Shown here: in pieces, positions 1,778-15,691 of the stretch | How positions within the stretch are numbered: position 1 is the stretch's first letter | How the letters are laid out: each line of letters opens with the position of its first letter | Assembly (NCBI RefSeq): GCF_030384885.1 | Contig: NZ_CP128613.1 | Reading direction: 5' to 3' (one strand) | Source: Escherichia coli | GTDB taxonomy: Bacteria > Pseudomonadota > Gammaproteobacteria > Enterobacterales > Enterobacteriaceae | DNA length: 64,000 nt | Position numbers and translations under genes: made by a program | The notes under the pieces: model-generated | Seen by the model: only the letters and a program-made list of their open reading frames with translations | The model's database searches: none | Told to the model about the DNA's origin: nothing

Positions 1778-1812
1778 CAGCCCGACGAACTGTTTCGCCG
1801 GGCTGATTTTTA
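1778..1812. terminator. Candidate bidirectional rho-independent terminator between convergent perM and focB
   Basis: Inverted repeat agcccgacgaa / ttcgccgggct with 4-nt loop followed by gattttta. Confidence 0.5.
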
Positions 1813-2658
1813 GGGTTCCTGACGTAAATAAATAGCCCGATAACAAATACTCACCAGCACTGCACCGCCGATAATATTACCCAGCATCACCGGGAGCAGA
1901 TTGGCGGTAATAAAATGGCTGACCGTCAGTGCCGGAAAATTGTCTGCGCTACTGTGCGCCAGTTGCCAGAAGGAGGTAGGGGCGAAATGGCGAATGGCAA
2001 TGGCGAACGGAATCACAAACAAATTGGCGATACAGTGCTCAAAGCCACTGGCGACAAACAGGGTGATGGGCAAAATCATGGCGACGATTTTGTCGCATAA
2101 TGAACGTCCGCAATAACTCATCCACAGCGCCAGACAAACCATCAGATTGCACATAATGCCGAGGCTGACTGATTCAGTAAATGTATGATGCATTTTGCCC
2201 TCGGCGCAGTGTAAAACCGCGACTCCCCACATCGCGTTTTCACTCATCACCAGCCCGGAAAACCAGATTAACAAACTGAAACAGGCAATACCTGCCAGAT
2301 TACCGCAGGCCACCAGAAGTGCATTAATCAGCCATGTTCGCAAGCTAATAACGCCCCGACTTTTTGCCATCACCGTTATTACCGACGAGGTGAACAGGCT
2401 GGTGCCGCAAACCGCCAGCAAAATAAAGCCGAGTGTAAAGCAAAGGCCACCCACCAGATGGGTTAATGCCTGTGAAGACGGGGCATCGGCGATAACGGTA
2501 AGGTAAAAAGTAAATCCGATCGCCATAAACACGCCTGCGGACATCGCCATTAAAAAGACCGACACTTTGCTGCGGGCAATTTTATGGGCGGCAATCCGTT
2601 CAGCGATTGCCGCTTTTCTGGCGCTCAACTGCAAGTCGAAAGAGAGTTTGTTTCTCAT
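1810..2658 (-). CDS. focB: Formate channel FocB (FNT family)
   Basis: 282-aa multi-TM ORF immediately downstream of hyfR on the same strand; matches hyf-operon terminal gene. Confidence 0.85.
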   Translation of the reverse strand: MRNKLSFDLQLSARKAAIAERIAAHKIARSKVSVFLMAMSAGVFMAIGFTFYLTVIADAPSSQALTHLVGGLCFTLGFILLAVCGTSLFTSSVITVMAKSRGVISLRTWLINALLVACGNLAGIACFSLLIWFSGLVMSENAMWGVAVLHCAEGKMHHTFTESVSLGIMCNLMVCLALWMSYCGRSLCDKIVAMILPITLFVASGFEHCIANLFVIPFAIAIRHFAPTSFWQLAHSSADNFPALTVSHFITANLLPVMLGNIIGGAVLVSICYRAIYLRQEP

Positions 2659-2679
2659 GCATACTCCTGCAAAAACAGA

Positions 2680-4692
2680 TTACAACACCTCGCGAACCGA
2701 GATCCCCAGCCGCTGCATTCGTGACAGCAGCGTGGTGCGCTTCATCCCTAATCGCGTCGCCGCGCCACGGGGCCCGGCAACAATGCCATTGGTTTCTCGC
2801 AATACCTGAACAATGCGCTGACGTTCTTCTTCGTCGTTTTCTGGCGTCGTCGGGTTCAGCAACTGCGCCATTGAACGGCGAAGCGCCGAATTTTCATTTA
2901 ACGTTGGCAGTAAACGGCTTTGGCGGACATTAAGATGTAAATTCAGACTGTTACCGCGAGTCAGTAATACCGCTCGCTCAATCACGTTTTCCAGCTCGCG
3001 CACGTTGCCCGGCCAGTCCCACGACATCAACTGGCGTAGCGCTTCTGTTGGAATGGCATCAATTGTGCGATTCATATGGCGAGCCATTTTTTGTGTAAAA
3101 TGTTTTGCTAAAAGAGGGATATCTTCCGGACGGTCGCGTAGCGGCGGCAATTCCAGTGGAAAGACGTTAAGTCGATAAAAGAGATCGCTGCGAAACTGGC
3201 GATCTTCAACCATTTGCCACAAATCACGGTTGGTGGCGGCAATGACTCTGACATTCACCGGGATCGTTCTACTCCCACCGAGACGCTCAATTTCCCGCTC
3301 CTGTAATACGCGTAGCAGTTTGGGCTGAAGTTCTAACGGCAGATCGCCAATTTCATCGAGAAATAACGTGCCGCCATCGGCAATTTCAAAACGACCACGA
3401 TGAGTGTTAATCGCGCCAGTAAATGCCCCTTTGTCGTGACCGAATAACTCACTTTCCAGAAGACTGGCGGGGATAGCGGCGCAGTTGATTTTGACCAGCG
3501 GCTTGTCGCGTCGCGGGCTCAGTTGATGGATCGCCCTGGCGATCACCTCTTTGCCGGTTCCGGTTTCACCACAAATCAACACCGTACTGTCGCTCTTCGC
3601 CACAATATCTACCTGCTGGAGTAAATCTTCCATTGCCTGGCTTTGATAGATAATGTCACCAACGCCCAGATTCGAAAGGAGCTGCTCGCTAAGCTGGTGA
3701 TTTTCTTGCTGTAAACTTTCCTGCAAATCGGTCATGCTGCGCCAGGCATCAGCATTACCAACGGCAATAGCGATGCGATCGGCAATATGTTGTAGTAGCT
3801 GGCAGTTTTCCTCACTAAAGAGAGTGGGAGAGGTATGCGCCAGCAACAATGCACCCGGTGTATGGTTGCCAAAGGTAAGCGGTATAAGGAGCGCAGATTC
3901 GCAGCCGTTAGATGCAAGTAAGTGTAATAACGGGTCGCGTTGCCAGAGAAACAGATCGTCTGCACGGTGCGTCAAGGTCGGTTGTCGGGTTTGTAGCGTT
4001 TGTGTCAGCAATACACTTTCGCCAGGCATACAGCGTGGCAGACACGCACAATGTGAGGCAGAAAGATCGCTGCACCACAGGCTGAACTTCTCGTTCTTTC
4101 GATGATCGCCCAGTACCATACTGACTGAAGCCAGACCGAAAAAATGATGGATCTCACGAGCGACGTCAGCGATCAGATCGTCGAGATCAAGATGTGACAA
4201 CACTGCATTAGTGATATCCACCAGTACCCGATGATGATCGCGATCTTTCTCCAGCAAACGCAGCGCCACCTGCTGTTCTTCATCATTGAGCCATGATTGC
4301 AGAACCGGAGTGATTATGTGTGCCAGCCAGTTAAACAGTGTGCAATCCTGGGGAGTAAAACGACTGCCGTGGGTGCGAATAAAGCGTAGCTCCGCCATTC
4401 CACTACTGCCGAGAAGGACGGCGTGGCGCGAATAATCGACCATCTCGCCCTGATACTCTGTTGTTGCCGTCACATCGCTGCCATCATCATGGTAGCGGTA
4501 ATAGAAGTTGCTTTTGAGAACATGCAGTTCAATAAGTTGTACCGGGCTGAACGGCGGCGGCAGCGGGATGAAGGCGCGTAATAAAGACGCCTTGCCGTGT
4601 TTCTGCGCTAACCGCTCCGCGAGCATTCCGTTTACCGCTTCAATTGTTATTCCTTGTGGCGGGGCAAACATCGCCTCGTCTGACATAGCCAT
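2680..4692 (-). CDS. hyfR: Sigma-54-dependent transcriptional activator HyfR
   Basis: Contains Walker A GETGTGKE and the GAFTGA sigma-54 contact motif (GHDKGAFTGA), C-terminal HTH; start taken at second Met (MAMSDEA). Confidence 0.9.
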   Translation of the reverse strand: MAMSDEAMFAPPQGITIEAVNGMLAERLAQKHGKASLLRAFIPLPPPFSPVQLIELHVLKSNFYYRYHDDGSDVTATTEYQGEMVDYSRHAVLLGSSGMAELRFIRTHGSRFTPQDCTLFNWLAHIITPVLQSWLNDEEQQVALRLLEKDRDHHRVLVDITNAVLSHLDLDDLIADVAREIHHFFGLASVSMVLGDHRKNEKFSLWCSDLSASHCACLPRCMPGESVLLTQTLQTRQPTLTHRADDLFLWQRDPLLHLLASNGCESALLIPLTFGNHTPGALLLAHTSPTLFSEENCQLLQHIADRIAIAVGNADAWRSMTDLQESLQQENHQLSEQLLSNLGVGDIIYQSQAMEDLLQQVDIVAKSDSTVLICGETGTGKEVIARAIHQLSPRRDKPLVKINCAAIPASLLESELFGHDKGAFTGAINTHRGRFEIADGGTLFLDEIGDLPLELQPKLLRVLQEREIERLGGSRTIPVNVRVIAATNRDLWQMVEDRQFRSDLFYRLNVFPLELPPLRDRPEDIPLLAKHFTQKMARHMNRTIDAIPTEALRQLMSWDWPGNVRELENVIERAVLLTRGNSLNLHLNVRQSRLLPTLNENSALRRSMAQLLNPTTPENDEEERQRIVQVLRETNGIVAGPRGAATRLGMKRTTLLSRMQRLGISVREVL

Positions 4693-4721
4693 CAACAGTC
4701 CTTATTAATGAGAAATCCTTC

Positions 4722-5135
4722 TCACGCAATTTTTCTGGCCATCAGATAGATGGACGGTTCCTGCACAATTTCATCCAACAGATGAATGAATTGAATGCTA
4801 CGCGCCTGCCACACAGACGTCGCGTCATCTGCCAGTGGCGCGAATGCCCGGGTCAACAGGGCGGTGTGGCTGGCGTCAATAACAATCTCACCAAAGGTCA
4901 TCACCCCCAGCATCTTACGTCGGGCTTGCTCCTCTTCGACCTGTGCAAGCCAATCTTCGTATTCCGTCTGTGGGCAGCGGAAGGCGACATTCAGACAATC
5001 AATCACGCCAACGTGATGACCGATAGCCAACGAGTAATACATTACCTGGGAGCTGTGTTCCGGCATCTCGTCGCTACTGGCGATAAATTTTTTTCGCAGC
5101 GTCCAGAAAACAATTTCCCCGCACTCCTCAGCCAT
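4722..5135 (-). CDS. hyfJ: Hydrogenase-4 maturation/assembly protein HyfJ (HycH-like)
   Basis: 137-aa ORF between hyfI and hyfR, overlapping hyfI stop by 8 nt. Confidence 0.8.
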
Positions 5136-5886
5136 GTAACCCCCGGAGAACGCGAAAGAGTTGCTGAACGATACTATTGAGACGCGGATCGTCGGCTTCG
5201 CGCAACCAGGTGTTAACCCGATTTCCTGTAGGATCGTCGCTTAAATGGCGCAGGAGCCGATCGCAAATTTCTCGCCCCTGACGATAGCCCGCCAGCCGCC
5301 TCGCTTCTCGCTCAATGGCGATACGCTGTGATGGCGGGCTCTGCGGCCACAGCGGTTGCATGGTCACCCCGGTGGGATCGCGATAATCCACCGCGTGAAT
5401 CTTCTGTTGTAGCAAACCGAGCGCCACGGCGAAACCGTGAATGGTGGCGGCCGGTGTTGGCGGGCAGCCGGGGATCCAAACATCAATGGGGACAATGGTG
5501 TCGCTGCCGCCCCAGACGCTGTAAAGATCGTGGAAAATACCGCCGCCGACACCGCACGCGCCGTAGGAAACACAGATTTTATGATCGGGGGCAGACTCAT
5601 ATGCCCGAAGTGCAGGCATACGCATCGCCCGGGTGACTGCGCCAGTAAATAACAAAATATCGGCGTGACGCGGTGATGAAACAACCTTAATGCCAAAACG
5701 TTCTGCGTCGAATACTGGTGTGATGGCGGCAAAAATTTCGATTTCGCAGGCGTTGCAGCCGCCGCAATCGACGCGATAAACGTAGGCCGAGCGACGGATA
5801 TCCTGTAGCAAATGCTGCTTCATCTTTTGCGTTTGTTCGTCCAGCGTGATGGGCTGGCTGACATGTTGCGTAAGCACTGGACTCAT
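5128..5886 (-). CDS. hyfI: Hydrogenase-4 small subunit HyfI (NuoB-like, Fe-S)
   Basis: 252 aa; [12 protein letters not shown] and GCPPTP cysteine motifs typical of NuoB/HycG-type subunits. Confidence 0.9.
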
Positions 5887-6428
5887 AGCTGCTCCTTAGC
5901 CACCAGCGGTTCATCTGTGTCGTCGTTGATCAGCGTCGCGCGTTGTTTGCATTCCGGGCAGACGCTCGCTTGTGCCCACAACATTTCGCGGTTTTGTGGT
6001 GCATTTTGTTGCTGTGCCAACAGTTCTGCAGCCAGTGCGACGGTTTTTTGCGGGGCAAACGGGCGTTCGCAACGGCTGCAACGTTGTAGATGGAACGTCG
6101 CGCGGGTATAGAGATCGGCTTTATTGGTGACGGTCAGTTCAAAGTTATTGGTAAGCTGAATGGCTCTGGTCGGGCACACTTCTTCACAACGTCCGCAGTA
6201 AATACAACGCCCCAGATAGAGCTGCCAGGTGCGCGTATTTTGCTGGTCGTCGGTCTGGATAGTCAGCGCATTTGCCGGACAAGCACAGGCGCAGGCACCG
6301 CAGGCAATACATTGGCTGGGCATCAGGTCCGGTTTCCCGCGAAAGCCTGGGCTGACCTCCAGTGGCGCGAAGGGATATTTCACCGTCGCGGTTCCGGCGC
6401 GCATAATAGTTTTCAGTAACTTCAGCAT
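5883..6428 (-). CDS. hyfH: Hydrogenase-4 2x[4Fe-4S] ferredoxin-type subunit HyfH
   Basis: 181 aa; two CxxCxxCxxxCP clusters ([24 protein letters not shown]). Confidence 0.9.
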
Positions 6429-6437
6429 TTTCTGTCC

Positions 6438-8153
6438 TTACTTCAGCGGCGAACGGTTACGATCAATGCCGTAGCGTTCGATCTCTTTATACGGCACGGT
6501 TTTTGACTGGCGCTTGCGCACATCAACCAGCGTCACACGGTCGGTACAGGAGTAGCAGGGATCAAGGCTACCGATAATCAGCGGTGCGTCAGAAACGGTA
6601 TTGCCGCGCAGCATGTAACGCAGCACTGGCCAGTTGGCGTAGGTGGCGGCACGACAGCGCCAGCGGAACAATTTTTGGTTATCACCGAGCATGCTCCAGT
6701 GCACGTCTTCACCGCGTGGCGCTTCAACAAAGCCCAGCGCGAATGCGTGAGGTTTATAGCTAAAGCCTTCGGTCAGCAGTGGGGTATCCGGCATGTTGTC
6801 GAGGGCAAATTCCAGCATTGCCAGCGAATCAAACGTCTCTTTGACACGGACCATCACGCGGGAGAAGACATCGCCGCCGGTAAAGGTAAACAGCGTTTTG
6901 GGAATATTGCCGTAGTCGGCGTAGGGGTGATCAAAGCGCAAATCACGGGCAAAACCACTGCCACGGATCAGCGGCCCTACGGGGCTATAATCACGGGCGA
7001 TTTGTCGGTCGAGAATGCCAATGCCCTGAGTGCGTTGTTCCATATTCGGCGTGGCAAGCAGCATCTCTACCAGCTCCGACACGTCGGCGCGCATCTCGCG
7101 CACCAGTTTCATCGTTTGCAGACGTTGCTCTTTGAGAATATCGCGGCGAACACCACCAATCAGATTCAGACCGTAGGTTTTACGCGACCCGGTCAGCAAT
7201 TCCGCCATCGTCATCGACTTTTCCCGCACGCGGAAAAATTGCATAAAACCGGTATCAAAACCAACAAAATGGCAGGAGAGGCCAAGGTTGAGCAAATGAC
7301 TATGCAGCCGTTCGACTTCCAGCAGAATCGAGCGAATAGTATGCGCTCGTTGCGGCACCTCAATCCCCAGTGCATTTTCAACCGAGTTGGTATAGGCCAC
7401 ACTGTGGGCAAAACCGCAAATCCCACACACGCGGTCCGACAAGAAGGTCACTTCGTTGTAGCCCATCCGCGTTTCCGCCAGTTTCTCCATGCCGCGATGG
7501 ACATAAAACAGGCGGTAATCAGCATCGACAATTTGCTCGCCATCCACAAACAAGCGGAAGTGACCTGGTTCATCGGAGGTGATATGCAGCGGGCCAACAG
7601 GGATCACCCGCGCATCGCTGTTGCCCTCGTTGATAAACGGATACGTTTCGGTATCAGTCGTCGGTTCAGGGCGCAGTCGATAATCCATCGCGTCTTTGCG
7701 CAGCGGATGCATATCTTCCGGCCAGTCATCGGGCAACACCAGGCGACGCTGATCCGGCAGGCCAACCGGAATCAGCCCGTACATATCGCGAATTTCTCGC
7801 TCGCCCCAGACCGCGGCAGGGACGCGCGGTGTGACTGACGGAAACTCCCGACTGTCGGCATCGACCAGTGCCTTCACCACGATCCAGCATTTTTCGGCCC
7901 CTTCCATTGAAAGGGCATAATAAACCGCGTAATGACCGTTAAGTGTCCGCTCGTCGTTGCCAAACAGGACCGGAAGCCAGCCATCATGTTGATAATAAAG
8001 ATAATGTACAACGTCAGGCAGCAGATTTATTTTCACCGTAATGGTGACCTGTTCAGGCGTTTGTCGCTCTTCATCCAGCACCGCGCCGGGGAACTGCGTT
8101 TTCAGGGCGGCGAGAATCGCTTCGCCACGATTTGACGATGAATTAACGTTCAC
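6438..8153 (-). CDS. hyfG: Hydrogenase-4 [NiFe] large subunit HyfG
   Basis: N-terminal [11 protein letters not shown] and C-terminal DPCYSCTDR nickel-binding motifs. Start assigned to GTG at 8153 (GGAG 8 nt upstream, MNVNSSS...); the ORF-track ATG at 8198 would overlap hyfF by 56 nt. Start is uncertain. Confidence 0.85.
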
Positions 8154-9723
8154 TGTGTTTCTCCGAAACAGATGCGGTGCCTGAAGGCAAAAAATCATGC
8201 CAGGTGCTACGTTGTGCAGGCAGGTCGTGCGTCCCTGAGAGGACTATAGTGGAAGCGCCCGCTAGGATCCTGATGACAGGTTGTGGAATATGCGTTCCCA
8301 TCGCCAGCATCATGACCAGCAGAATCACCATTGGCGAGGTGGTCAACCAGCCAAGTTCACCCCGGTTAACGGCCTGCGGCGGTTTCGCCATTAATACCCG
8401 CGCAGCCATCCGTACCAGGCCCGCCAGCACCAGCGTTAACAGCAATAACAGCAGGACGATAATCAACAGGTGATTACGAGCCAGTCCGGCGGTAACGGTC
8501 ATAAATTCGCTAAGAAAAATATTGAAGGGCGGCATCCCGGCCAGCGCCAGCGCACCGCCGCCAAACAGCACGGCGGTAAATGGCATGATTTTGAGCATTC
8601 CGCAGACGACGTTGAGATCGCGTGTGCCGTACTTGAGCAGTACATTGCCGGAACCGCAGAACAGCAGCGTTTTTGCCAGACTGTGGTTTAAGGTGTGCAG
8701 CAGCGCAGCAAAAATTCCCAGCGGCCCGCCAATGCCTAGCGCCACCGCGACCAGTCCCATGTTCTCCACGCTGGAGTACGCCAGCAGACGCTTAATGTCC
8801 CGCTGTACCAGAATGAAAAATGCCGCCACGGCAACCGACAACATGCCGAAGATGAGCAACAACCGGTTGGGGAAATCGCTGCCGATGGCCTGGCAAATAA
8901 TGATGTAATAGCGAATCAGCACCAATAGCGCGCAGTTCAGCAATACGGCGGAGAGCAGGGCGCTGACCGGACTCGGCGCTTCACTGTGAGCATCCGGCAG
9001 CCAGGCGTGCATGGGAAATAGCCCGGTTTTGGTGCCAAAGCCAATTAGCACAAACACAAAGGCCAACAGCATTAATGTTGGGTCAAGCAAGGACGATTGC
9101 TTAAGAACCTCGCTCCAGAATATCGCCATTTCTGCCTGCGGCATAACGCTGGCGGCGTTGGCGTATACCAGCACGGTACCGAACAGACCAAAAGCGACAC
9201 CAACAGTACAAATAATGATGTACTTCCATGCAGCTTCCAGAGATGAACGCTGACCGTAAATGCCTACCAGAAACGCCGAGCTTAAGGTGGTGGCTTCGAT
9301 CGCCGCCCACATCACAATCAGGTTATTGCTGGTAACAACCAGCAGCATGGTGAACAAAAACAGATGGAAGAAACCGTAGTAATCGCACAGCGTAACGGGT
9401 GAAAGCTCGCCGTGAGCCACTTCATGACGCATGTAGCCAATCGAGTAAACACCGGTGAGAAAGCCAATCACACCAAGAATGGCGAGGAACAAACCGCCCA
9501 GACCATCAATATGAAGCCACAGTCCCGCAGCGAATATTTCTCCCGCATCAGCGGCAGTTTGGACCACCCACAGTGCCAGAATCAGCAGCAGTGTGATCCC
9601 TAAGCTATGTAGTACTGTCACCGTGCGAGTCGCAGAGTGTCCCCGTTTCCGGCAGGCAAAACAGAGCAGCGAAAAAAGCAGCGGCGTGAGCAGGAGTAAA
9701 GCGAACATCACAGAATAACTCAT
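8143..9723 (-). CDS. hyfF: Hydrogenase-4 membrane subunit HyfF (NuoL/M/N antiporter-like)
   Basis: 526-aa polytopic membrane protein in conserved operon position. Confidence 0.9.
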
Positions 9724-9727
9724 CTCA

Positions 9728-10378
9728 TTATCCCTTCAGCGCGGTCAAGTTGTTCACGTCCAGCGTGCCGTGGGTACGCCATATTTTTCTTGCCAGTAAC
9801 ACCATCACAATGACGGCGAAGATGGCGTCGGTAGCGATACCAATTTCCACCAGTTCCGGTGCACGCCAGGCAAGAAGCGCCAGCACCAGATGGGAGCCGT
9901 TTTCCATCAGGCAGTAACCAAAAATTTGCCGCAGGATATTGCGCTGGCTGACAATGCACAGCAGGCCAAGCAGAAAATGACCTAACGCCACCGCCAGCGC
10001 CGGTTTCAGCCCGGTAGCCATCGGTAGCTTCACGGGCTGAACGACAAATGCGCAAAGCAGGACAATTAATGCCGCGAGCAATGCCATCATTGCCGGACCG
10101 AATAACGCTTTTTCCGGGAGGTTCTGGGGAATATTTCGTGCAGCGTAAATCATGATTAACGGTACCATCAGTACTTTGGTGATAAAGGCGCTGGCGGACC
10201 AGATCAGCAGTTGCTCTGCGGCGAACAGGCACGAGAGGGTGGCGAAAATAGACACCAGCACCAGCGACTGGCAGGCGTAAAATCCGCATGACAGGCGATA
10301 GCTTTTGACACTAATCACAAACAGCGATGTCAGCATCATCAGTCCCGCCAGATTATTTACGATCATAGAACCGGTCAT
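9728..10378 (-). CDS. hyfE: Hydrogenase-4 membrane subunit HyfE
   Basis: 216-aa hydrophobic ORF between hyfD and hyfF. Confidence 0.85.
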
Positions 10379-10389
10379 TCATCATCTCC

Positions 10390-11829
10390 TTACTGCAACC
10401 AGGTCGCGGCGAATACGCTGGAAATCAGCGACATCACAATCAGTACAATCAACACCAGGCGCATTGATCCTGGCAGCGGTGCGGCATCGGCGACGGCTTC
10501 GCTCGGTTTGCCAGGCACGACGCGACCAAACCAGCGAATAAACCAGGCGAAACTGGCGACCGATTCAATCATCAGCAGAATCATGGCGGGCAGCAGGATC
10601 CAGTACTCCACTGACAACGAAAAACCGGCAGCAAACAGTGGGAATTTACTGAAGAAGCCGTTGAACGGCGGCACGCCAGTAATCGCCAGCGCGGCCACGC
10701 AGAAACCCACGCCTGGCAACGGCAGGGTGTGCAATACGCCACGCAGACGCGGCAACAAGCGCGTGCCGCAGCTGTAACTCAGCGCACCTGCTACAAGGAA
10801 AAACAGGCTTTTAGCGAACGCGTGGTTGACGATGTAGGCGATGCTGCCCTCCAGTGCCAGCCGCGAGCCGAAGATGGAGAGCGACAAGCCGAAGAACATC
10901 CAGCCAAGTTGAGTGATGGTCGACCAGGCCAGCAACCGCTTCATATCCTGCTGCGGCAAATACATCAGAAAGCCGTAAAGAATGGTGACCAGTGCCATGA
11001 CCATGCCAACGCCGCCAATCACATGCGGGATATTGCCGCCGTCGATAATGGCGCGGGCAAAAATGTAAACGCCCACTTTCACCATCGATGCGGCGTGGAG
11101 ATAGGCGCTGATCGGTGTTGGCGCTTCCATTGCATCCGGTAGCCACGCTTGCATCGGTAGCTGGGCCGATTTTCCCCACGCGGCAAACAGGATGCCGCCA
11201 TAAACCAGATAACGTGCGTCGCCGTGTAACTCGCTCATCGCGCTAAGCGCAAACGTTCCGGTCTGCAAAAACAGCGTGGCGGCGGCAAGATACAACCCCA
11301 GCGAACCGATATGAGTGATAAGTAACGCTTTTAGTGCTGAACGTTGCGCTTTATCGCTCTGGTAATAACTGATCAATGCCCAGGAGCAGCCGCCCGTAAT
11401 TTCAAAAAACAACAACTGACCGAGCAGCGTCGAGGAGAGTACCAGTCCCGCCATCGCGCCGATAAAAACCAGCAAAAATGCGTAATAACGATTCGTGCCG
11501 TTATGCGGGTGTTCGCGATTTTTATCCGTCAGATAACCCGTGGAGTAGATCGTGACCAGCAAACCGAGGAACACCACCACAAACAGAATCAGCGTACTCA
11601 CGCGATCAATGACCAGGCCAAACAACGCCACATCCCCCACGTTGACCAACGTCAACGTGACGGCAACTTTATCGGCCTGATAAAACGCGGAGATCAGCGA
11701 CAACATGCACAGCGTGGTCAGCGCGGCGAACAAAATCCCCCATTCGGCGGCCCGACGTTGTGGCGAAAACGAAACGACCAGTGCGCCGATAAAAGGCAGC
11801 AATAACGTCGTCAGAGCAAGATTTTCCAT
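10390..11829 (-). CDS. hyfD: Hydrogenase-4 membrane subunit HyfD (NuoL/M/N antiporter-like)
   Basis: 479-aa polytopic membrane protein. Confidence 0.9.
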   Translation of the reverse strand: MENLALTTLLLPFIGALVVSFSPQRRAAEWGILFAALTTLCMLSLISAFYQADKVAVTLTLVNVGDVALFGLVIDRVSTLILFVVVFLGLLVTIYSTGYLTDKNREHPHNGTNRYYAFLLVFIGAMAGLVLSSTLLGQLLFFEITGGCSWALISYYQSDKAQRSALKALLITHIGSLGLYLAAATLFLQTGTFALSAMSELHGDARYLVYGGILFAAWGKSAQLPMQAWLPDAMEAPTPISAYLHAASMVKVGVYIFARAIIDGGNIPHVIGGVGMVMALVTILYGFLMYLPQQDMKRLLAWSTITQLGWMFFGLSLSIFGSRLALEGSIAYIVNHAFAKSLFFLVAGALSYSCGTRLLPRLRGVLHTLPLPGVGFCVAALAITGVPPFNGFFSKFPLFAAGFSLSVEYWILLPAMILLMIESVASFAWFIRWFGRVVPGKPSEAVADAAPLPGSMRLVLIVLIVMSLISSVFAATWLQ

Positions 11830-11845
11830 ATTCCGTCAGTGCTCC

Positions 11846-12793
11846 TTACAGACCGGTTAACCAGAAGACCCAGGCAAGCGCAGCAAGGCTGAAGCCAAGC
11901 CAGGTCACATGGTGAATGAGTAAAAAACGCCCGCGTGCCAGCGTGTTTTCTGCGATAGAGGCCAGAACAAAAATCAGCAAAACCTTGAGCAGCGTAACGA
12001 CAAGTGAAGTCAGCAGGCAGGTGAGAGAAAGCTCTTGCGCGCGCCCAAAGGGCAGAAACAGGGCCACAAACAGTGATGCCATCACGACCTGTTTCAGCCC
12101 CAGCCCCAACTTCGCCAGCGCCAGCCCGGCACCGGAATATTCGGTCAGCGGGCCTTCCTGTAATTCCTGTTCTGCTTCAGCAACATCAAAGGGAATTTTT
12201 CCCATCTCAATGAAGCAGGCAAAACCACAGGCCAGTAACGCCAGTACGGTGGTTAGTGGCGAGTTCCAGCCCGTCGCCAGCGTCTTGCTGATCATCTCGA
12301 TATGCGTGGAATCCGCTATCAGCGCCAATACCAGCAGTGAGAGAATGAGCATGGGTTCGACCAGAATGCCGAGCGTCAACTCGCGACTGGCACCGACTCC
12401 CGCAAACGGGCTTCCGGTATCCAGCCCGGAAAGAGCAAAGAAAAAACGAAACAGGGCAAGAAGATAGATAAGGGTGATCAGATCGCCGCCGCCCGCAAAA
12501 GGGGAAACAGTAATAAATAGTGGTAGGGCCATCGCCAGCACCAGCATGCTGCTGATTAATACCCACGGCATCAGGCGGAACATCAGACCTGAAGATGTCG
12601 GCGCAACTTCCTGGCGTTTAAACAGTTTGTGGATATCGCGATAATCCTGCCAGATCCCCGGTCCGCGACGGGAGTGCATACGCGCGCGTATCTGCCGGGA
12701 AATCCCCGTAAAAAGCGGGGTTAGCGCCAGCAGAATCACGGCCTGTGCTAACGCAAAAATGATCAGATATCCGTCGCAAAGAGTTTGTCTCAT
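11846..12793 (-). CDS. hyfC: Hydrogenase-4 membrane subunit HyfC (NuoH/HycD-like)
   Basis: Hydrophobic ORF; start moved to internal Met (MRQTLCDGY) to give ~315 aa. Confidence 0.85.
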   Translation of the reverse strand: MRQTLCDGYLIIFALAQAVILLALTPLFTGISRQIRARMHSRRGPGIWQDYRDIHKLFKRQEVAPTSSGLMFRLMPWVLISSMLVLAMALPLFITVSPFAGGGDLITLIYLLALFRFFFALSGLDTGSPFAGVGASRELTLGILVEPMLILSLLVLALIADSTHIEMISKTLATGWNSPLTTVLALLACGFACFIEMGKIPFDVAEAEQELQEGPLTEYSGAGLALAKLGLGLKQVVMASLFVALFLPFGRAQELSLTCLLTSLVVTLLKVLLIFVLASIAENTLARGRFLLIHHVTWLGFSLAALAWVFWLTGL

Positions 12794-12803
12794 GGTGATT
12801 TCC

Positions 12804-14822
12804 TTAGACGGCAATAGCGATTAGCAGCACAACCAGTGCGGCGACCACATACAGGCAATAGAGACGAAAGTCGCCGCTTTGCAGATGCTGTATTTCTTTG
12901 GCCAGCCGTTGGGTGGCGCTCACGATGGGGCGGATCACCCGCTCATCCCAAAAGGGTTCTGTGCTCTGAGCCCTGGCGGTGATGTGCGCGAGACCTTTGT
13001 TCAGCCTCAGCGTAGGGTCGAGCTGTTGTCGTAGACGAAATAGCGCAGAAAAGACCACACGCAGCGGCTGCATCACGCCATTGCCTGACGGGGCCATCTC
13101 ATTTTCCCAGCCGTAGCCGCATGCCCACGCATCCCCTGTGCGACGAAACGCTGCACGGCGCGAACGACACCACAGCCAGTAAAGGCCAGGCAGCAAAGGC
13201 ATCGCCAGTAGTAACAGCAACAGTAATGAGGGAGTGACCCGTGTATGAAACGTGCCGGGGACAAGTGCCATTCCGCTGGCGACAGTGACGGGAGGGGTAT
13301 TGGTAAACGCATGGGCAATGTGCATTATTTTCGGTGCCAGCCAACTGGCACTAAGCGCAATTAATACGCAGAAAGCCGCGAGCAGTAACATGGCGACGAT
13401 CATCGTATTTGGCACTTCCTGTGCCTCTTCAGCGTGTGTACTGCGCGGCGCACCACAGAAAGTAATACCGTACATTTTGACGAAGCACATTACTGCCAGC
13501 CCACCAGTGACAGCCAGCATCACCATAGCAATAGGACCCGCAAGTTGTAGCGCTACGGCTTCCACACGACTTAGTGAGAACAGCGACTGCCAGGTGTACC
13601 ATTCGCTGATAAAACCATTCAGCGGAGGAATGGCTGATATCGCGAGGCAACCAATCAGGCATGCTGCGGCTGTCCACGGCATCCGTTTTGCCAGTGCCCC
13701 CATTTTTTCCATGTCGTGGGTATGCAAACGCGAAATAATCGCACCCGCGCCGAGAAATAGCAGCCCTTTGAACAGCGCATGGTTGAGCAGATGAAACAGT
13801 GCGCCGAGCAGTCCAACCACGGTGAGCAGCGGGTCGTGCAGTGACAGACCGACCATGGACACACCGACCGCCAGCAAAATAATGCCGACGTTTTCGACGG
13901 TACTCCAGGCCAGCAGCCGTTTGATATCCTGTTCCGCCAGCGCATACAGCACGCCCAGGAGCGCGGAGATTGCGCCGATCGCCATCACCAGAATGCCCCA
14001 CCACAGCGGCAAACCCGTTTGCGCCAGCAGATCCATCGCCACTTTCAGGATGCCGAAAATACCGATTTTGACCATTACGCCAGACATCAACGCCGAAGCG
14101 TGCGATGGTGCGGCAGGGTGAGCGCGCGGCAACCAGCTGTGCAACGGCATCATCCCGGCTTTCGCGCCAAAACCGAAGAAGGCCAGCAGGAACACCGCCG
14201 ACGCCAGCCCCGGAGAAAGTGAAAGCGTGCGGAAACTGGCAAAATCGAGGTTGCCGCTTTCGCGCCACATCAGCAAGAAGGCGATCATAATCAGCACCGA
14301 TCCGGCGTGAGCGATAAAAAAGTAGAGCATGCCAGCGTTGATTGACGTTTTATCCTGCCTGGCAATGACCAGAAACCAGGAAGACAGCGACATCATTTCA
14401 AACAGCACGATGAACCAAAAAGCGTTGTCCATCACCAGCAGGGCAACCATCGATGCGATGAAAAGATTCATAAAGAAGCCCATCGCCGCCGCGCCTTTGC
14501 CCTCGTATTCGCGCATATAAGTCAATGAATAGAGCGAACAAACCACCACCAGCAAGGAGATAACCAGCACCATAAATGCCGAGAGGCTATCTATTCGCAG
14601 GGTTAAATCGGCAAAGTCAAAAGGCGTGGCAAAACGGGCGACTAAAGTTACGCCTGCATGTAATTGCGTAATTCCGCTGATGATGCCAATCGCGCCGCCC
14701 ACCAGCGATGTGATGCCGGAAAGCTTAATAGCCAGTCTGTCCAGACCGAGTAAAAACAGCGAAGCCAGACTGGCAAACAGATAGAGGATCAGCGACCAGG
14801 TTAATAATTGCAGGGCATCCAT
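12804..14822 (-). CDS. hyfB: Hydrogenase-4 membrane subunit HyfB (NuoL/M/N antiporter-like)
   Basis: 672-aa polytopic membrane protein; ATGA start/stop overlap with hyfA. Confidence 0.9.
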   Translation of the reverse strand: MDALQLLTWSLILYLFASLASLFLLGLDRLAIKLSGITSLVGGAIGIISGITQLHAGVTLVARFATPFDFADLTLRIDSLSAFMVLVISLLVVVCSLYSLTYMREYEGKGAAAMGFFMNLFIASMVALLVMDNAFWFIVLFEMMSLSSWFLVIARQDKTSINAGMLYFFIAHAGSVLIMIAFLLMWRESGNLDFASFRTLSLSPGLASAVFLLAFFGFGAKAGMMPLHSWLPRAHPAAPSHASALMSGVMVKIGIFGILKVAMDLLAQTGLPLWWGILVMAIGAISALLGVLYALAEQDIKRLLAWSTVENVGIILLAVGVSMVGLSLHDPLLTVVGLLGALFHLLNHALFKGLLFLGAGAIISRLHTHDMEKMGALAKRMPWTAAACLIGCLAISAIPPLNGFISEWYTWQSLFSLSRVEAVALQLAGPIAMVMLAVTGGLAVMCFVKMYGITFCGAPRSTHAEEAQEVPNTMIVAMLLLAAFCVLIALSASWLAPKIMHIAHAFTNTPPVTVASGMALVPGTFHTRVTPSLLLLLLLAMPLLPGLYWLWCRSRRAAFRRTGDAWACGYGWENEMAPSGNGVMQPLRVVFSALFRLRQQLDPTLRLNKGLAHITARAQSTEPFWDERVIRPIVSATQRLAKEIQHLQSGDFRLYCLYVVAALVVLLIAIAV

Positions 14823-15439
14823 TAGCGTTGCTCCTGAGTGAGGGAAAGGGGATCCTCCCCGCCATTGGCAAACCAGCTTGCGGCAAGGCGCTGTTTTTCT
14901 TTCATCTGACGTTGCAGGCTATCGTCGGTGATCAGCCGTAACGCATGATTCGGGCAAGCGCGAACGCAGGCCGGACCTTCTGGCAAGAAATCACACAGGT
15001 CGCATTTCACCGCGACGGTCTGGACACCCGGTTCCCAGCGCAGCAAAGCATGTTGGGTCGGCGCGTTTTCTTCGCCGTCTTTGAGTGAGCCGTCAGCCTG
15101 AAAAACATATTGCGCAGGGGCATTCACCGGACGGCTTCCTGAAGCGCTGATTGCGCCAAATGGGCAGACCACGGCGCAAAGCTTGCAGCCAATACAGAGG
15201 CTTTCGTTGAGTTGGATCGCATCATCTCTCTGGGAGATGGCATTGACCGGGCAGACCTGCAGGCAAGGGGCTTCCTCACAGTGATGACACACGACAGGGG
15301 CAGTGAGTGTTGACGTCTTCGCCAGGGCCAGGCGCGGGTGTTGCTGTAAACCTTGCGTTTTATGCACGTCCGAACAGGCAGCGAGACAGGTATTACATCC
15401 TGTACACCACAGTGGTTCGGCCACCACAAAGCGGTTCAT
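14822..15439 (-). CDS. hyfA: Hydrogenase-4 ferredoxin-type subunit HyfA (4x Fe-S cluster motifs)
   Basis: CTGCNTCLAAC, CHHCEEAPC, CIGCKLCAVVCPFGA, CDLCDF motifs; start at internal Met (MNRFVVAEP) giving ~205 aa. Confidence 0.9.
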   Translation of the reverse strand: MNRFVVAEPLWCTGCNTCLAACSDVHKTQGLQQHPRLALAKTSTLTAPVVCHHCEEAPCLQVCPVNAISQRDDAIQLNESLCIGCKLCAVVCPFGAISASGSRPVNAPAQYVFQADGSLKDGEENAPTQHALLRWEPGVQTVAVKCDLCDFLPEGPACVRACPNHALRLITDDSLQRQMKEKQRLAASWFANGGEDPLSLTQEQR

Positions 15440-15480
15440 GTCGGCTCCTTGAAAATGATATGAAACATTGCATTTCATAT

Positions 15481-15497
15481 TGCATAAAGGATGCCAG
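15481..15497 (-). promoter_or_regulatory. Sigma-54 (-24/-12) promoter of the hyf operon
   Basis: Reverse strand reads cTGGCATcctttaTGCAat, i.e. GG-N10-GC with good match to TGGCAC-N5-TTGCA, ~40 nt upstream of the hyfA start; consistent with a HyfR (sigma-54 activator) regulated operon. Confidence 0.7.
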
Positions 15498-15691
15498 TCT
15501 GATTAATTTAATATATTCAATAAGTTATGTGTTAACTGGATTCTGAACGGTACAAAAATGATGGTCATTAACGTTCAGCAATAAATGGATTCGACACCCG
15601 TGTCGCAGGGGAAAGCGAGAATGTGATCTTGATCACGAGAAGTGAGGTGTGCTGGCCGCAAGCGCAGCCAGCACTGAATGGAGCAAAGTAA

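Follow-up and report, generated by a model that had tools for sequence, protein, structure and literature searches.

A probable GTG start for Escherichia coli hyfG, with its Shine–Dalgarno sequence in the end of hyfF

In the stretch of Escherichia coli DNA analyzed here (64,000 nucleotides of NZ_CP128613.1, hereafter the window, to which all positions refer), hyfG very probably begins at the GTG codon at 8153, served by a Shine–Dalgarno (SD) sequence in the end of hyfF, while an in-frame ATG at 8198 would go unused and coupling to hyfF by re-initiation is plausible. This start is already annotated and published, and as such the finding is already known. E. coli hyfG is described as initiating with GUG, and that GUG start has been speculated to control enzyme levels (Finney et al. 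2019, PMC7384014). A sequence-only reading of the window had called the start ambiguous, though it leaned towards the GTG and took the overlap to imply coupling. Two in-frame candidates do exist, but the ambiguity is only apparent, as the public annotation already settles it. For cloning or tagging HyfG, the current start annotation is right and the upstream ATG should be avoided.

The complete hyfABCDEFGHIJ-hyfR-focB operon lies on the minus strand and is annotated in RefSeq, with hyfG directly after hyfF (Table 1). HyfF matches the NCBIfam model NF005041, ‘hydrogenase 4 subunit F’, over residues 1-526 of 526, with 1179 bits against a cut-off of 951. For HyfG, no specific NCBIfam model reached its cut-off, and the name is therefore based on similarity to HycE, operon context and RefSeq, which lists the protein as ‘hydrogenase 4 catalytic subunit HyfG’. 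The full-length similarity to HycE places it among the large subunits of group 4a [NiFe]-hydrogenases. Like HycE, HyfG has the two-domain layout of a NuoC–NuoD fusion: in NCBIfam, residues 86-169 match NuoC_fam and residues 198-478 match NuoD models; neither match reaches the cut-off set for its family, which is to be expected of a hydrogenase, these being homologous families. A close orthologue in one of the nearest relatives (L082) carries PF00329, PF00374 and PF00346. The translation contains both NiFe-ligating Cys pairs, one of RxCGxC type and, near the C-terminus with its cleavable tail, DPCYSC of DPCxxC type; the R*VTLV cleavage context agrees with the description given by Finney et al. 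(2019, PMC7384014).

Table 1. Features of the hyfF/hyfG junction, in window coordinates
Feature	Position	Strand	Details and basis
hyfF CDS	8143..9723	minus	526 aa, hydrogenase-4 antiporter-like membrane subunit F; ORF list, translation, RefSeq
hyfF stop TAA	8143..8145	minus	Within hyfG codons 3-4; codon walk
hyfG CDS, read from GTG	6438..8153	minus	571 aa, [NiFe]-hydrogenase-4 large subunit; same coordinates as RefSeq WP_001102313.1
Predicted hyfG GTG initiation codon	8151..8153	minus	N-terminus (M)NVNSSS; conservation in 77/79 loci, Finney et al. 2019
Predicted hyfG SD, GGAG	8161..8164	minus	7-nt spacer to GTG; inside hyfF codons Ser-Glu
hyfF/hyfG overlap, 11 nt	8143..8153	minus	hyfG in +1 frame relative to hyfF
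In-frame ATG without SD	8196..8198	minus	Would give a 56-nt overlap with hyfF; from hyfF codons CAT-GAT (His-Asp)
TAG closing the hyfG frame upstream	8244..8246	minus	Codon walk

Beyond the closing TAG, the hyfG frame meets ATG 8198 as its first canonical start codon and GTG 8153 as its second. Initiation at the ATG would yield a protein of 586 aa, with a 15-residue N-terminal extension. This reading draws some appeal from the codon being the sole in-frame ATG, and from ATG being the preferred start codon, with which every gene of the 12-gene operon (window 1810-15439) except hyfG begins. We nevertheless regard it as highly improbable. When the 17 nt upstream of each candidate were hybridized to the 16S anti-SD sequence, GTG 8153 gave a duplex of -6.6 kcal/mol, a strength that just 3% of the positions across the 7-kb region equal or exceed. 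The corresponding energy for ATG 8198 is +0.6 kcal/mol, which amounts to no SD at all, and 86% of the region's positions are equal or better. The sequence-only reading had thus placed both candidates correctly, the ATG with its long overlap and no SD, the GTG with its short overlap and an upstream GGAG; the ‘8 nt’ that it gave for the GGAG is the 7-nt spacer, counted from the last G. The chance of an in-frame ATG in the 31-codon open stretch is ∼38% (ATG alone), and hence its presence there is not beyond chance. The hexanucleotide c-ATG-at of E. coli consists of the His-Asp codons of hyfF, which follow the sole conserved Trp of the HyfF tail, and the ATG is best seen as a by-product of these two codons in a tail of low conservation.

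Comparison with HycE bears on the same choice. HycE (PDB 7Z0S chain E, 7z0s_E) matches the long ORF over residues 22-586 (E = 1.5e-292), with HycE residue 4 facing its residue 22, or residue 7 when counting begins at the GTG. The GTG form reaches 3 aa beyond the HycE N-terminus and the ATG form 18 aa, and the 15-residue extension of the latter has no counterpart in HycE. The proposal that the N-terminus encoded from the GTG fits HycE-type subunits is borne out by this alignment, and orthologue alignments checked for support of the upstream ATG gave none, favoring the GTG instead.

Could hyfG start still further downstream, for example at GTG 8081 (residue 25 of the GTG form)? That codon is in frame and recurs at the same alignment position in many loci, but it encodes the conserved Val of FPGAV, a motif that accounts for the recurrence. 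It lacks an SD (-1.7 kcal/mol), and the residues that precede it, 7-24, align with HycE 4-21 and are conserved as protein, which marks them as coding. We consider a start at this position vanishingly unlikely.

Annotation is uniform on this point. Every E. coli RefSeq record inspected (2013C-4282, K-12 C3026 and two further strains) has hyfG starting at the GTG, and none has it starting at ATG 8198; strain 2013C-4282 and the window share 100% identity across the junction. Gene calls in two unrelated assemblies of close relatives likewise give 571 aa and an 11-nt overlap. Across complete E. coli genomes, we found the junction of the hyf region (window ∼1800-15500) in 4294 of 5426; the remaining 1132 match only hycE, and so about a fifth of E. 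coli are without hyfG. Of the 4294, 4196 (K-12 included) have the 86-nt junction unchanged from that of the window, and this near-invariance means that variation within the species cannot discriminate the two starts. Two E. coli genomes, L084 (NZ_CP173544.1) and L086 (NZ_CP080121.1), have hyfF annotated as a frameshifted pseudogene near the junction, and one of the two gives hyfG the name ‘NADH-quinone oxidoreductase subunit C’ instead.

Comparison between species is more informative. We fetched 80 hyfF loci of other species by HyfF alignment and located hyfG in 78 of them, which with the window makes 79 loci; L049 and L052 gave no match to hyfG, and the order hyfF-hyfG thus holds in 78/80. 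All 79 loci have an SD-linked start 6-10 nt 3' of (A)GGAG, at the very end of hyfF. GTG serves as this start in 77, which range from Enterobacterales to Shewanella, Gilliamella and a Desulfovibrio MAG; the other two, from Uliginosibacterium and a soil MAG, are the most distant loci and have ATG. The spacer is exactly 7 nt in 66/79. The bases flanking the start vary freely, codon 2 being AAC, AGT, AGC, ACT, ATT, AAT, ACA or TCA. Because these flanks vary and the hyfF tail is unalignable, the invariance of the SD and GTG is not merely a reflection of low divergence. The survey shows that the predicted SD-N7-GUG arrangement is near-universal in FHL-2 operons and not particular to two species, which is the modest new element here.

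The upstream ATG shows no such conservation. In the two closest relatives outside E. coli (L082 and L083; HyfF 81% and 85% identical), GGC-AAG stands in its place, and an ATG at the homologous position is absent from all other loci in the 79-locus set. Some in-frame ATG does occur upstream of the SD-linked start in 11/79 loci, at non-homologous positions and without an SD. In 38/79 loci, a stop codon interrupts the hyfG frame less than 15 codons 5' of the start, and therefore an N-terminal extension of the E. coli length is impossible there. These data argue as much against a mixed scheme, in which both starts are used and a minor 586-aa isoform accompanies the main product of 571 aa. An in-frame AUG within a translated region may allow some leaky initiation at a low level, and no stop separates the two candidate codons, but everything that speaks against ATG 8198 applies equally here; moreover, the extension is not conserved even among genus-level relatives, which makes a functional isoform unlikely. 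We judge such dual initiation to be about as improbable as sole use of the ATG. Given the conserved sequence arrangement, we infer that GTG 8153 is the codon used in vivo.

How the hyfF stop and the hyfG start are placed relative to each other varies within narrow limits. In 74/79 loci, the arrangement falls between a 3-nt spacer and a 23-nt overlap. Most frequent are a 1-nt spacer (26 loci) and the 4-nt overlap GTGA (21 loci), followed by an 8-nt overlap (10), a 2-nt spacer (9), a 23-nt overlap (3) and an 11-nt overlap (2). Eight loci have tblastn HSPs that run past the hyfF stop, and all of these have TAA and then a 1-nt spacer. In E. coli, the hyfF stop lies 8-10 nt 3' of the first base of the hyfG GTG, and the surrounding CGTTAAT is invariant in the alignment across E. 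coli, Citrobacter and Klebsiella indica. Immediately after the GTG, a 12-nt indel (window 8140-8150 versus ∼4574-4593 in L002-L005; alignment columns 128-139) separates the 11-nt overlap of E. coli from the 23-nt overlap of Citrobacter and K. indica, four codons having been lost from both overlapping frames together. Judged from this alignment, the overlap of E. coli is derived from one of 23 nt, the length found in Citrobacter and K. indica.

On this geometry, translational coupling of hyfF and hyfG is plausible. Ribosomes ending hyfF would keep the SD/GTG region unfolded, and those finishing the gene would probably re-initiate at the hyfG GTG, which would couple synthesis of HyfG to that of the membrane subunit HyfF. 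No structure that would enforce coupling was seen in the RNA fold of the 106-nt junction (z = 0.19). We also considered a programmed frameshift fusing HyfF and HyfG and rejected it, as there is no slippery motif, the stop is conserved, and an SD and start are present.

The C-terminal tail of HyfF (window 8143-8240, residues ∼495-526; alignment columns 497-568) is poorly conserved and variable in length, with a Thr/Gly-rich insertion in Dickeya. The only residues retained in it are a single Trp and, where the hyfG SD is read as part of hyfF, a Glu preceded by Gly, Ser or Gln: Ser-Glu in E. coli, Gly-Glu or Gln-Glu in the other loci. The hyfG SD appears to dictate these last conserved residues: they would be the only ones conserved at the extreme C-terminus because the SD constrains the last hyfF codons.

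GUG is a weaker start codon than AUG, and hyf is barely expressed in laboratory E. coli. The deep conservation of GUG suggests selection on the hyfG start codon itself, because a single transition would give AUG and many loci are free of the constraint that overlapping hyfF codons would impose. Going further is more doubtful. It is conceivable, although we lean somewhat against it, that GUG together with an SD embedded in hyfF is an ancient, selected feature of FHL-2 which deliberately limits synthesis of the large subunit, or couples it to that of the membrane arm, and that this may contribute to the poor Hyd-4 output of E. coli. The hyfF/hyfG junction is a sensible place to look for ways of raising Hyd-4 expression.

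Short overlaps also occur elsewhere in the operon. The sequence-only reading had pointed to ATGA or short overlaps at hyfA/B, hyfH/I and hyfI/J; all three junctions do overlap, by 1, 4 and 8 nt, respectively, but the ATGA is found at hyfH/I, whereas hyfA/B has TAATG. An apparent start ambiguity similar to that of hyfG is seen for three other genes, all on the minus strand, for which the ORF list and RefSeq differ in length: hyfA (14822-15478), 218 versus 205 aa; hyfC (11846-12814), 322 aa from TTG versus 315 aa from ATG; and hyfR (2680-4695), 671 aa from TTG versus 670 aa from ATG. In each of these, an SD precedes the annotated ATG.

A separate observation concerns the hyfG coding region far from its start. 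The gene is intact in the window, encoding 571 aa, whereas HyfG of K-12 (L087) has 555 aa, 16 aa having been lost by a 48-bp in-frame deletion. The deletion is flanked by 10-bp direct repeats, GCCCGTGATT, at window 6998..6989 and 6950..6941 on the minus strand. The window and HycE have the deleted segment, and so does every one of the 80 hyfG loci from outside E. coli, with the pattern ARD[YFH]SxVGPxxRxSGxxRD; we take it to be the GxxxRGSG motif, conserved up to the 49-kDa subunit of complex I. With a 148-nt query and at least 80% coverage, the full segment was found in 2179 of the 4294 hyf-positive complete E. coli genomes, and those sampled from the rest had an exact 48-nt gap. By these counts, roughly one in two hyf-positive E. 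coli carries the deletion allele, and K-12, the laboratory model, is among them. The inactivity of E. coli Hyd-4 is called unexplained in the FHL-2 papers searched by keyword, and the search did not find the hyfG deletion in them; the literature search was limited, and the deletion may be reported elsewhere. Loss of these 16 aa from HyfG may bear on the long-standing question of why Hyd-4 of K-12 is inactive.

Set against known systems, hyfG of the window is the same gene, with the same GTG start, as hyfG of E. coli K-12 (b2487) and of Pectobacterium atrosepticum, both belonging to hydrogenase-4/FHL-2. Its paralogue is E. coli hycE, which encodes the large subunit of hydrogenase-3/FHL-1, and the N-termini of the two proteins lie 3 residues apart if hyfG is read from the GTG. 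The junctions of the paralogues differ: hycE begins with ATG and does not overlap hycD, whose stop lies 17 nt before it, whereas hyfG has a GTG and an 11-nt overlap. The upstream neighbor of hycE is hycD, a homologue of HyfC, because FHL-1 lacks HyfD, HyfE and HyfF. The coupled pairs trpE/trpD and trpB/trpA, of ATGA/TAATG type, likewise have a stop within a few nucleotides of the start and an SD in the upstream coding sequence. These classic pairs overlap by 1 or 4 nt, whereas hyfF and hyfG, a putative coupled pair, overlap by 11 nt with a GTG start.
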